NCBI GenBank assembly: GCA_001303765.1 | Contig: LJUH01000002.1 | Location: 1 to 48,736, forward strand | Direction of reading: 5' to 3' | Source: Chlamydiae bacterium SM23_39 | GTDB taxonomy: Bacteria; Chlamydiota; Chlamydiia; Chlamydiales; SM23-39 | DNA length: 48,736 nucleotides | Shown here: in pieces, positions 38,540 to 45,914 of the stretch | How positions within the stretch are numbered: the first letter of the stretch is position 1 | Layout: each line of letters opens with the position of its first letter | Made by a program: the position numbers and the translations under genes | Notes under the pieces: model-generated | Told to the model about the DNA's origin: nothing | The model's database searches: none | Seen by the model: the letters and a program-made list of their open reading frames with translations, nothing else

Positions 38540-38568
38540 TTGACAAAATAGAGATCCATTTATATATA
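38540..38568 (+). promoter_or_regulatory. Candidate promoter of the racemase-permease-ADI operon
   Basis: Perfect TTGACA (38540..38545), 17-nt spacer, TATATA (38563..38568), 14 nt before the ATG at 38582. This implies a very short leader. Confidence 0.4.
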
Positions 38569-38581
38569 TCAAAGAAACATT

Positions 38582-39652
38582 ATGAAATTTCCTCGATTAA
38601 TATGTGATTTAAATAAGATAAAGAAAAATGCAAAGATAGTCGTTTCTTTAGCAAAGAGATATAATATATCTGTTACTGGAATTACAAAAGTAACTTGTGG
38701 AAATCCAAATATAGCTAAAGCTATGGTAAGTGGAGGTGTTAAGATTATTGGGGATTCTAGAATAGAAAATATTAAGAGATTAAAAAAAGAAAAAATAGAT
38801 ACGAGATATATGTTGATTAGATCTCCTATGATAAGTGAAATAGCTGATGTTATAAAATATGCAGATATATCTTTAAATACTGAACTCTCCGTTATAAAAA
38901 AACTTTCTAATTTTGCTAAAAAAAAAAATAAGAGACATAAAGTTATATTGATGGTTGAGATGGGAGATCTTAGAGAAGGAATTTTAAAAGAAGAGTTATC
39001 AAAATTTATTGATGAGACTTTAAAATTTCCAAATATTGAATTATATGGAATAGGAATGAATCATGCATGCTATGGAGGAGTGATACCTACTCAAGAAAAA
39101 ATTGAAGAGTTTGAGGATATTGTTATAAAAATGGAAAGAGATAAAAATATCTCTTTTCAAATGGTAAGTGGAGGAAATTCTTCTATCATTCCACTTTTAA
39201 TAAGTGGTATGAAAAGTAAAAAAATAAATGATATAAGAATAGGAGAAGGGATAATTTTAGGTAGAGAAACAGTGAATAGAAAAGCTTTTTTAAATAGTCA
39301 TCAAGATACTTTTTTGTTAGAGGGAGAGATAATAGAGTTAAAAGATAAACCCTCTCTTCCTTCAGGACAAATAGGGCAAGATGCTTTTGGAAATATTCCT
39401 TCTTTTAAAGATTATGGAGTTATTACAAGAGCATTACTAGCTTTAGGTAGACAGGATACTATTTTTGAAGATCTTATTACAGAAGATGGATTAGAAATTT
39501 TAGGAGCAAGTTCTGACCATCTTATTTTATATTTAAAAAATAGAAGATATAAAGTGGGAGATAAGATTAAATTTAATTTAAAATATGGGGCTTTATTAAG
39601 AGCCTTTACTAGTAAATATGTTAAAAAGATTTTTGTAGATTATGAAGAATAA
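38582..39652 (+). CDS. PLP-dependent amino-acid racemase, alanine/ornithine racemase (YhfX/Orr-like) family
   Basis: 356 aa. N-terminal TIM-barrel pattern with the candidate PLP lysine in GITKVTCG. Size and layout match ornithine racemase-type enzymes. Substrate unknown. Confidence 0.7.
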   Translation: MKFPRLICDLNKIKKNAKIVVSLAKRYNISVTGITKVTCGNPNIAKAMVSGGVKIIGDSRIENIKRLKKEKIDTRYMLIRSPMISEIADVIKYADISLNTELSVIKKLSNFAKKKNKRHKVILMVEMGDLREGILKEELSKFIDETLKFPNIELYGIGMNHACYGGVIPTQEKIEEFEDIVIKMERDKNISFQMVSGGNSSIIPLLISGMKSKKINDIRIGEGIILGRETVNRKAFLNSHQDTFLLEGEIIELKDKPSLPSGQIGQDAFGNIPSFKDYGVITRALLALGRQDTIFEDLITEDGLEILGASSDHLILYLKNRRYKVGDKIKFNLKYGALLRAFTSKYVKKIFVDYEE

Positions 39653-43965: not shown

Positions 43966-44904
43966 ATGGAAAAAGTATTAATAGCGCTTGGAGGTAATGC
44001 TCTTTTAAGAGCGGAGGATAAAGGAACTTATGAAGATCAGATCAAACATGTCAAAGAAACTGCTTCACAGTTTTTGAAAATAATAGAAGCAGGGTATCAA
44101 TTAGCAATAACGCATGGTAATGGTCCACAAGTTGGAGCTATTTTATTGCAAAATGAGATAGCTAAAGATCAAATACCCTCGATGCCTTTAGATATTTGTG
44201 GAGCTGAAAGTCAGGGTCTTATTGGCTATATGCTGCAAAGAGAGTTTTATAATGTGTTGGAAGAGGTAAAATTGGGTATATCTATTGTAGCGCTTTTAAC
44301 GCAAGTTTTAGTTAATAAAAATGATCCAGCTTTTGAAAATCCAACCAAACCTATTGGTCCTTTTTATTCTGAGGAGGAAAAAATCAAATTAGAAAAAGAG
44401 AAAAAATGGAAGATGATCTATCAAGAAAATAAGGGATATAGAAGAGTTGTTCCCTCTCCTATTCCTATTGATATTGTTGAGGGAGAGATAATTAAAGAAC
44501 TTTATGATAATAAGGTGATTGTTATCTCTTGTGGAGGAGGAGGAATACCGGTTATTAGAAGAGATGATGGTTCTTTGATGGGAGTGGAAGCAGTGATAGA
44601 TAAAGATAATACTGGAGCTGTTTTAGCAAAAAAGATAGGAGCTGATACATTTATGATTTTAACAGATGTAGAAAAGGTGTATTTAAATTTTGGTAAAAAA
44701 AATCAGAAAGAGTTAAATAAGATAACTGTTGCTGAAGCTAAAAAATATATAGAAGAGGAAGAGTTTGGAACAGGAAGTATGAAACCAAAAGTTGAAGCAG
44801 CATGTAGATTTTTAGAACAGGGAGGGAAAAAAGTTATAATAACAGCATTAGAAAAAAGTGTTAATGCTCTTCGTGGTTTAACGGGAACAGTTATAACATT
44901 ATAA
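43966..44904 (+). CDS. arcC: Carbamate kinase
   Basis: 312 aa. VLIALGGNALL and THGNGPQVG signatures. Confidence 0.9.
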   Translation: MEKVLIALGGNALLRAEDKGTYEDQIKHVKETASQFLKIIEAGYQLAITHGNGPQVGAILLQNEIAKDQIPSMPLDICGAESQGLIGYMLQREFYNVLEEVKLGISIVALLTQVLVNKNDPAFENPTKPIGPFYSEEEKIKLEKEKKWKMIYQENKGYRRVVPSPIPIDIVEGEIIKELYDNKVIVISCGGGGIPVIRRDDGSLMGVEAVIDKDNTGAVLAKKIGADTFMILTDVEKVYLNFGKKNQKELNKITVAEAKKYIEEEEFGTGSMKPKVEAACRFLEQGGKKVIITALEKSVNALRGLTGTVITL

Positions 44905-44918
44905 TTTTAGGAGAAAAA

Positions 44919-45914
44919 ATGGCAATTAATTTAAAAGGAAGAGATTTTTTAAAATTAAAAGATTTTACTAAAGAAGAGATAGAATACCTTTTAAAATTAT
45001 CTAAAGATTTTAAAAACAAGAAGAGATGTGGAATAGAAGGCGATTCTTTAAAAGGTAAAAATATTGTTTTGTTATTTGAAAAAGCTTCTACAAGAACTAG
45101 ATGTGCTTTTGAAGTAGCTGCATTTGATGAGGGGGCAAATGTCACTTTCCTATCTCAAAGTCAGATGGGTAAAAAGGAATCAATTGAAGATACAGCGCAA
45201 GTTTTATCTAGGATGTATGATGGGATAGAATTTAGAGGATTTAAACAGGAAACAATAGAAGAGTTAGCTTCTCATTCTTGTGTTCCTGTATGGAATGGAC
45301 TTACAGATGAATTTCATCCTACTCAGATATTAGCTGATTTTTTAACCGTAGCGGAACATGTAGATAAACCTTTTCATAAAGTTAAATTAGTATTCGTTGG
45401 AGATGCTAGAAATAATATGGGTAATTCTTTAATGGTTGGATCTGCTAAATTGGGAGTCCATTTTGTTGCTTTAGCTCCTAAAATGCTTTTCCCTAATGAT
45501 AAATTAGTAAAAGAGATGGAAATAGAAGCTAAAAAAACAGGAGGAAGAATAGAGCTTTTAGAAGATATAGAAAAAGCTGTTAAAGATGCTGATGTTATTT
45601 ATACTGATGTATGGGTTTCTATGGGAGAAGAGGAAAAATTTGCAGAGAGGATAAAACTTTTAAAAAAATATCAAGTTAATATGAGCATGATAGACAAAAG
45701 TAAAAATAAAAAAGTTGTTTTTATGCATTGTCTACCTTCTTTTCATGATATTAAGACTGAAGTAGGTAAAAAGATATATGATCAATATGGTCTTAAAGAG
45801 ATGGAGGTTACTGATGAGGTTTTTAAAAGTTCTCATAGTGTTGTTTTTGATCAAGCAGAGAATAGATTGCATACTATAAAAGCTGTTATGTCAGCGACGA
45901 TAGGAGATCTGTAA
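44919..45914 (+). CDS. arcB: Ornithine carbamoyltransferase (catabolic, judged by context)
   Basis: 331 aa. STRTR, HPTQ and HCLP motifs. Follows arcA-arcC. Confidence 0.9.
   Translation: MAINLKGRDFLKLKDFTKEEIEYLLKLSKDFKNKKRCGIEGDSLKGKNIVLLFEKASTRTRCAFEVAAFDEGANVTFLSQSQMGKKESIEDTAQVLSRMYDGIEFRGFKQETIEELASHSCVPVWNGLTDEFHPTQILADFLTVAEHVDKPFHKVKLVFVGDARNNMGNSLMVGSAKLGVHFVALAPKMLFPNDKLVKEMEIEAKKTGGRIELLEDIEKAVKDADVIYTDVWVSMGEEEKFAERIKLLKKYQVNMSMIDKSKNKKVVFMHCLPSFHDIKTEVGKKIYDQYGLKEMEVTDEVFKSSHSVVFDQAENRLHTIKAVMSATIGDL

Follow-up and report, generated by a model that had tools for sequence, protein, structure and literature searches.

The window analysed here, a stretch of 48,736 nucleotides from the genome of Chlamydiae bacterium SM23_39 (contig LJUH01000002.1, positions 1 to 48,736), carries at 38582-45914 on its + strand six long, co-directional and tightly packed open reading frames (ORFs), as seen in the ORF list and in scans with Pfam and NCBIfam. 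Four of these genes, encoding a CAT-like carrier, an arginine deiminase (ADI), a carbamate kinase (CK) and an ornithine carbamoyltransferase (OTC), most probably constitute a catabolic ADI pathway, that is, a working arginine fermentation locus, a reading to which we assign a probability of about 0.8. The other two, encoding a racemase and an amino acid exchanger, are a lineage-specific add-on and represent the new element of the locus. The six genes are as follows.

38582-39652, + strand: Orr-like racemase of the alanine/ornithine racemase family, a pyridoxal phosphate (PLP) enzyme of fold type III, 356 amino acids (PF01168, E = 1.6e-21)
39642-41042, + strand: apc1, paralogue of the GadC family (glutamate:GABA type) of APC exchangers, 466 amino acids (TIGR03813, 434 bits, below the cut-off of 650)
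41103-42656, + strand: apc2, CAT-like APC carrier, 517 amino acids (best PDB relatives GkApcT and plant CAT4)
42656-43963, + strand: adi, divergent arginine deiminase, predicted to be of the archaeal/eukaryote type, 435 amino acids (PF02274 over the full length, E = 1e-43)
43966-44904, + strand: arcC, carbamate kinase, 312 amino acids (TIGR00746, 412.7 bits, above the cut-off of 358.25)
44919-45914, + strand: otc (arcB), ornithine carbamoyltransferase, catabolic by context, 331 amino acids (NF003286, 532.8 bits, above the cut-off of 515)

The arginine deiminase and the direction of the pathway

The deiminase of the window retains the whole catalytic and substrate-binding set of an ADI (N154, D160, R179, E209, R227, H269, D271, H425 and C426), and this set is invariant across 25 homologues. 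The Cys-His-Glu triad is formed by C426, H269 and E209, and the guanidinium and carboxylate groups would be bound by D160, D271, R179, R227 and N154; the motifs that contain them, FMRD (D160), SRRKE (R179), EGGE (E209), GDRT (R227), MHLDT (H269, D271) and AHCMTC (H425, C426), align with the FTRD, EGGD, MHLDT and HCMTC motifs of solved ADIs, those of P. aeruginosa, Mycoplasma and Streptococcus having been compared. A preliminary description of the locus, made from the sequence alone, had reported that the products of arcA (here adi), arcC and arcB keep their catalytic signatures, and this was borne out, since a search of the alignments for inactivating substitutions revealed no lost catalytic residue. 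The AlphaFold model of the protein (pLDDT 87) displays the fold of an ADI, a beta/alpha propeller of five blades into which a helical domain is inserted, here as a five-helix insert at residues 42-127. When the model was used as a Foldseek query, the ADIs 4e4j, 4bof, 1lxy and 1rxx ranked on top (E = 5e-22, TM 0.67-0.75), and amidinotransferases and DDAH followed only at ~1e-10, about 12 orders of magnitude behind.

The divergence of the protein could be explained differently, namely by its being another guanidino-modifying enzyme that acts on methylarginine or some other guanidino compound, or that transfers an amidino group, in which case the cluster would not encode a classical ADI pathway. 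Three observations are in keeping with this alternative: (i) the protein scores just 85.5 bits with TIGR01078, the curated equivalog of bacterial arcA, the cut-off of which is 489; (ii) it gives weak matches to DDAH in both Pfam and NCBIfam; and (iii) its identity to solved ADIs amounts to 17-20%. We nonetheless regard the alternative as very improbable in view of the full ADI length with the helical insert in place, the distance in Foldseek E-value that separates the ADIs from the other two groups, the complete and invariant set of substrate-binding and catalytic residues, the conservation of adi beside the CK and OTC genes in both chlamydiae and archaea, and a partner carbamoyltransferase that is of the OTC type and not of the putrescine type. 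The membership in a non-ADI guanidino-modifying subfamily, which the preliminary description had named as a possible refutation, is thus not what the protein displays: it models as an ADI, and not as a DDAH or an amidinotransferase.

Homologues of the window ADI bear the NCBI name 'arginine deiminase family protein'. The named relatives belong first to Anoxychlamydiales, Parachlamydiales and Neptunochlamydia and next to Saganbacteria, Auribacterota, Theionarchaea, Promethearchaeota and Methanolinea, and in the Atlas the clusters nearest to the protein are ADI-family clusters of archaea and eukaryotes. In a FastTree phylogeny the protein is nested, together with every chlamydia-named homologue, in a clade of 73 rows with a local support of 99, most of these rows being nameless. 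The window ADI would therefore seem to fit the archaeal/eukaryote clan described by Novák et al. in 2016 as 'Archaea plus a few Bacteria plus Eukaryota' (PMC5052871), resembling the enzyme of the pathway known from Giardia, Trichomonas and archaea and lying far from the bacterial clan.

The two remaining enzymes carry the motifs of their families, GGNAL9, HGNGPQVG50 and GGGGIP190 in CK and STRTR57, HPTQ133, SMG234 and HCLP270 in OTC. The latter also exceeds the cut-off of TIGR00658 (416 bits against 281) and stays below that of the putrescine carbamoyltransferase model (277 bits against 500); given these motifs and this score, the chain of substrates would be arginine, citrulline and ornithine. 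The agmatine deiminase/putrescine carbamoyltransferase route was considered as well and ruled out, as the carbamoyltransferase is of the OTC type.

Regarding the direction of the reaction, the genome (1.13 Mb, 97% complete, 26.2% GC) was searched for the partners that an anabolic OTC would need. Neither argininosuccinate synthase (argG), nor carbamoyl-phosphate synthase (carB), nor a second carbamoyltransferase, including aspartate carbamoyltransferase (pyrB), was found in this 97%-complete genome, leaving OTC as the sole member of its kind, and the positive controls of these searches gave matches in all 14 reference genomes. Since these genes were not found, OTC could work only catabolically, and carbamoyl phosphate could come only from citrulline and go only to CK. 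An anabolic enzyme of the argF type, the other refutation envisaged in the preliminary description, is excluded on the same grounds. If OTC and CK were nevertheless run anabolically, they would serve the synthesis of citrulline and arginine or supply carbamoyl phosphate for pyrimidines; this can be argued from the fact that the direction is not readable from the OTC sequence alone and that CK-like enzymes serve some archaea in the synthesis of carbamoyl phosphate. With argG, carB and pyrB not found and the genes packed with an ADI and amino acid carriers, we consider such a function scarcely credible, and the catabolic direction remains the one we adopt. A search of this genome for an AaxB-type arginine decarboxylase found none.

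The pathway would then run in four steps: (i) the CAT-like carrier Apc2 would import arginine, with ornithine probably leaving in return; (ii) the archaeal/eukaryote-type ADI would convert arginine to citrulline and NH3; (iii) OTC would cleave citrulline by phosphorolysis to ornithine and carbamoyl phosphate; and (iv) CK would use carbamoyl phosphate to yield ATP, CO2 and NH3. The overall route (arginine -> ornithine + 2 NH3 + CO2 + ATP), described earlier as apparently functional, does look intact and catabolic, with all enzymes bearing their signatures and the anabolic partners not found, and the activities of ADI, OTC and CK are those predicted from sequence. Several points weigh against this reading. 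Besides the low score with the arcA equivalog, the kinship with the studied ADIs of Giardia, Trichomonas and archaea is indirect, as the tree was drawn without those sequences, and both permeases fall far short of the ArcD model TIGR03810 (cut-off 591), Apc2 with 142 bits and Apc1 with 55 bits.

The CAT-like carrier and its companions

The best relatives of Apc2 in the PDB are GkApcT (5oqt, E = 2e-43), which we take to be a bacterial homologue of cationic amino-acid transporters, and plant CAT4. The preliminary description had left to transporter classification the choice of which permease is the arginine/ornithine exchanger; the choice falls on Apc2, a CAT/GkApcT-like protein and the likely arginine/ornithine carrier of the pathway, and the identity of an ArcD holds for neither permease. 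Compared with the bacterial arcABC(D) operons of Pseudomonas aeruginosa and Lactococcus lactis, the locus has the same chemistry, operon logic and provision of a dedicated carrier, but it contains a CAT-like carrier in place of ArcD, its ADI falls outside the arcA equivalog, and no ArgR or ArcR gene adjoins it.

The gene order supports the assignment of apc2 to the core of the locus. In each relative examined, apc2 immediately precedes adi, and six other members of the family (including G011, G017, G023, G020 and G344) share the gene order htpG / nadE-apc2-adi-arcC. In these family relatives otc is usually located downstream in convergent orientation, in contrast to the window, where it is collinear with the other genes. 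One relative (G020; locus L014, G020:C37, 3467-6590) has a tandem duplicate of apc2 upstream of adi, at the place where the window has the racemase gene and apc1.

The association extends beyond bacteria. An archaeal genome (G491; locus L147, G491:C28, 2068-7055) contains the cluster apc2-otc-adi-arcC, the products of which are 59, 37, 56 and 53% identical, respectively, to the window proteins, and in which otc sits between apc2 and adi; this genome is of the same taxonomic order as the Thermoplasmatales metagenome-assembled genome behind locus L020. The archaeal cluster thus shares Apc2, ADI and CK with the window at 53-59% identity, but its OTC at just 37%; the window OTC is 54-59% identical to OTCs of bacterial ADI operons. 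Because the window OTC is nearer to these bacterial enzymes than to that of the archaeal cluster, the locus is a mosaic. We infer that the CAT-like carrier, this type of ADI and CK move together as a cassette, across domains. As a CAT-like carrier accompanies this ADI type in chlamydiae and in an archaeal genome, it is a candidate for the arginine/ornithine carrier that the archaeal/eukaryote-type pathway has been missing.

The racemase and the GadC-family exchanger

Among 401 Chlamydiota genomes, the racemase was found in two from separate genera, that of the window (G000) and G344. In both genomes its gene is directly followed by that of an Apc1-type carrier within the ADI locus, at different insertion points: the pair lies 5' of apc2 in the window and 5' of otc in G344, where orr-apc1-otc (gaps of 14 and 15 nt) is convergent with nadE-apc2-adi-arcC. 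The sole orthologue of Apc1 (70% identity) is the one beside the racemase in G344, other copies in 103 genomes of the family being at most 53% identical. All relatives of the racemase returned by a metagenome scan were likewise distant, with no more than 47% identity, and our search of the literature brought up no paper in which ornithine racemase is connected with chlamydiae or with an antiporter.

The racemase has the features of a PLP enzyme of fold type III, with an invariant PLP lysine (K36) and a model (pLDDT 93) whose best structural matches are alanine and lysine racemases (TM 0.75-0.80). In the tree it belongs to a nine-member subclade, the sister group of which includes Thermoplasmatota sequences, apart from the named Orr of the Stickland type. 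A role as the alanine racemase of the cell was ruled out, as a canonical Alr is encoded at C66:23508-24512. The carrier Apc1 has E. coli GadC as its best PDB relative (4dji, E = 3e-62), and yet it is set apart from a GadC antiporter by its low TIGR03813 score and by its neighbour, which is a racemase and not a decarboxylase. The window genome holds two further GadC-family paralogues, one overlapping the gene of aspartate 4-decarboxylase (AsdA, C49) and one standing alone; the lone gene (G000:C42:18066-19460; L130, 5067-6461) encodes a protein 47% identical to Apc1 and is divergent from a D-2-hydroxyacid dehydrogenase-like gene. The AsdA pair is similar to the pair of the window in that a GadC-family paralogue overlaps a PLP enzyme, but with a racemase as the partner, substrate and product have the same charge, so that the charge-translocating precursor/product logic does not apply.

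A tentative explanation, possible though at somewhat less than even odds, is that the racemase and Apc1 would convert L-ornithine, the end product of the pathway, to D-ornithine and export or exchange it. A known parallel is orr-oraSE-ord-ortAB, the cluster of Stickland/oxidative ornithine metabolism, in many cases found together with ADI genes, with which the locus shares the link between an Orr-family racemase and an ADI; it differs in that the D-ornithine aminomutase OraE was not found in G000 or G344 with a protein query that recovered OraE in three of three genomes known to have it (a search with PF09043 matched no control genome, and the protein query was used instead). The OraSE partnership of Orr is accordingly missing from both genomes, and because no OraE was found in them, D-ornithine would be an end product and not an intermediate. 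That the pair forms an undescribed end branch of the ADI pathway, through which L-ornithine is racemised and leaves the cell as D-ornithine, is a more doubtful proposition. Were it true, several consequences would follow: (i) with D-ornithine leaving, the cell would be relieved of a product that otherwise rivals arginine for the carrier and drives the unfavourable OTC reaction in reverse; (ii) D-ornithine would be a form that the host cannot recycle; and (iii) D-ornithine output would bear on the exchange of amino acids between intracellular bacteria and their hosts. An Orr-family racemase with a dedicated exchanger, in genomes unable to degrade D-ornithine, hints at such an output of arginine fermentation. 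Three points weigh against the export of D-ornithine: the racemase remains below the cut-off of the Orr model NF040742 (426 bits against 480); it belongs to an uncharacterised subclade, closer to Thermoplasmatota sequences than to the Stickland-type Orr, so that lysine, arginine or alanine might be its substrate; and an exchange of L-ornithine for D-ornithine brings no obvious energetic gain.

The distribution of Orr-like genes elsewhere bears on both this explanation and its main competitor, according to which the racemase and Apc1 are an independent D-amino-acid module that merely lies beside the ADI genes and might serve the import and conversion of a D-amino acid or the supply of D-Lys, D-Orn or D-Ala for the envelope. 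About 30 of the 108 Orr-like loci that we examined adjoin oraE, some of them with ADI genes as well, and in most of the sampled loci oraE and ADI genes are both missing from the vicinity. Two loci (L109 and L126) show the order arcA-arcC-arcB-orr-ArcD-argR; the ArcD is bona fide, scoring 610 bits against a cut-off of 591, and oraE does not occur within 8 kb. An Orr-family racemase is linked with ADI genes in L106, L080 and L091 too. OraE was also not found in five other Orr-carrying genomes that were checked whole. The family is therefore functionally broad, given these five genomes and the majority of loci lacking oraE and ADI genes nearby, yet it is repeatedly linked to enzymes that lead from arginine to ornithine and to basic amino-acid antiporters.

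The idea of an independent module draws on this breadth, on the score of the racemase below the Orr cut-off, on the unrelated contexts in which the sister group of its subclade is found (a PALP-GNAT fusion and an M20 peptidase in L020 and L021) and on the pairing of another GadC paralogue with aspartate 4-decarboxylase in the same genome. On the other hand, the pair was inserted at two points in two genera, both times inside the ADI locus, and forms an apparent orr-apc1-otc unit in G344; the supply of D-Ala is already covered by the separate canonical Alr at C66; and Orr-like genes elsewhere recur beside arginine-to-ornithine enzymes. We consider an independent module slightly less likely and continue to favour, tentatively, the racemisation and export of ornithine, the logic of which might also explain the Orr-like genes that occur in ArcD-containing ADI operons or beside ArcD-like carriers, with no aminomutase nearby, in other phyla.

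Further arrangements were seen among the relatives of the racemase. The closest archaeal relatives stand in a conserved trio, in which the racemase is accompanied by a PALP-GNAT fusion and an M20 peptidase (L020, 5341-9564; L021, 982-4658), with a further GNAT 3' of the trio in L020. Metagenome clusters L119-L121 and L125 (e.g., L121, 5656-9888) contain a DDAH-like gene, an ArcD-like gene, orr and a second DDAH-like gene, with no OTC or CK gene nearby. In the protein P0242 (601 amino acids), encoded on a Logan contig of 55,865 bp, an arginase-family domain (PF00491) is naturally fused to an Orr-like racemase domain. An Apc1-like gene (P0245) and an ADI gene (P0069) may lie together on one contig, as the contigs recorded for them have the same length (5125 bp).

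Locus layout, organism and distribution

The junctions between the genes are as tight as described earlier, with an 11-nt overlap between the racemase gene and apc1, a 1-nt TAATG overlap between apc2 and adi, and gaps of 2 nt between adi and arcC and 14 nt between arcC and otc; to these can be added a 60-nt gap between apc1 and apc2, with an AGGAG 7 nt 5' of the TTG at which apc2 starts. The operon genes are presumed to be transcribed together. The preliminary description counted seven genes, which holds only if nadE on the same strand is included, as six lie in the interval itself. Two features precede the racemase gene.

36883-38514, + strand: nadE, glutamine-dependent NAD+ synthase, an outsider to the pathway (NF010588, 611 bits, above the cut-off of 479)
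38540-38545, + strand: TTGACA hexamer, candidate -35 box, present in the sequence

The hexamer, earlier presented as a perfect -35 box heading the operon, is indeed there at 38540 but carries no statistical weight. Its partner -10, TATATA, is below the threshold of the promoter scanner, and sigma-70-like sites in the region number 56 against 55.5 +/- 7.1 expected from shuffled sequence; with such sites no commoner than expected by chance in DNA of 26% GC, the box provides no evidence of a promoter. The scan of the region for promoters and terminators gave nothing above chance level, and Rfam searches across 36500-47300 gave zero matches at E <= 1. With regard to composition, the operon genes have a GC content of 27-33% and a GC content at third codon positions of 13-20%, compared with 26.9 +/- 3.1% and 15.2 +/- 2.4% for the ORFs of the genome; the genes of the ADI core lie 1-2 standard deviations above the genome mean, and there is no clear sign of recent transfer. 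In all the family members examined (the window; L011-L014 and L018), nadE immediately precedes the ADI cluster, and it could conceivably be connected with the ammonia that the ADI pathway sets free.

The genome encodes PFO (nifJ type, 1754 bits), the catalytic domain of an [FeFe]-hydrogenase and four to five NTT nucleotide transporters; cytochrome bd, the sole terminal oxidase searched for, was not found in it. The sequencing runs that contain the full stretch are labelled marine sediment and seawater metagenomes, and no RNA data set was listed among the runs. By this profile the organism looks like an anaerobe of the Anoxychlamydiales type, so the contrast with anaerobic marine-sediment chlamydiae implied by the preliminary description does not stand. 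Host dependence, which had been deduced from F-box effectors, is better argued from the NTT transporters.

Nor is the ADI pathway new for such chlamydiae. ADI-based substrate-level phosphorylation was reported in Anoxychlamydiales by Stairs et al. in 2020 (PMC7449678). Köstlbacher et al. described in 2021 the complete pathway in four families of chlamydiae and two clades of ADI (PMC8242063), and Dharamshi et al. reconstructed the pathway in 2023 at an ancestral chlamydial node (PMC9816063). The window shares with these Anoxychlamydiales and environmental chlamydiae the three enzymes, the anaerobic gene set and the marine-sediment source, and ADIs named as Anoxychlamydiales are 63-64% identical to that of the window and fall in the same clade of the tree. 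The accessible parts of the three papers make no mention of a 'racemase' or of carriers, both of which the window has. The headline of an ADI pathway being known already, the racemase-carrier extension and the CAT-like carrier amount to modest new variants, and the core adds one more genome to the picture of anaerobic chlamydiae that gain ATP from arginine and by itself changes nothing in it.

The window-type ADI is present in 20 of the 401 Chlamydiota genomes, 18 of them in the family of the window (its own genome included) and 2 in one other family. One family member (L015; G012:C34, ~6029-10641) has a different ADI, 27% identical to that of the window, beside otc, arcC and an APC carrier, which may represent the second chlamydial ADI clade of Köstlbacher et al. 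(PMC8242063). Downstream of the locus, the - strand carries at 45917-47110 and 47291-48475 the genes of a DUF4143/AAA_14 ATPase, of which the genome has four paralogues, and of a TPR-repeat protein; the latter belongs to a large expanded family with matches on more than 10 contigs of the genome.

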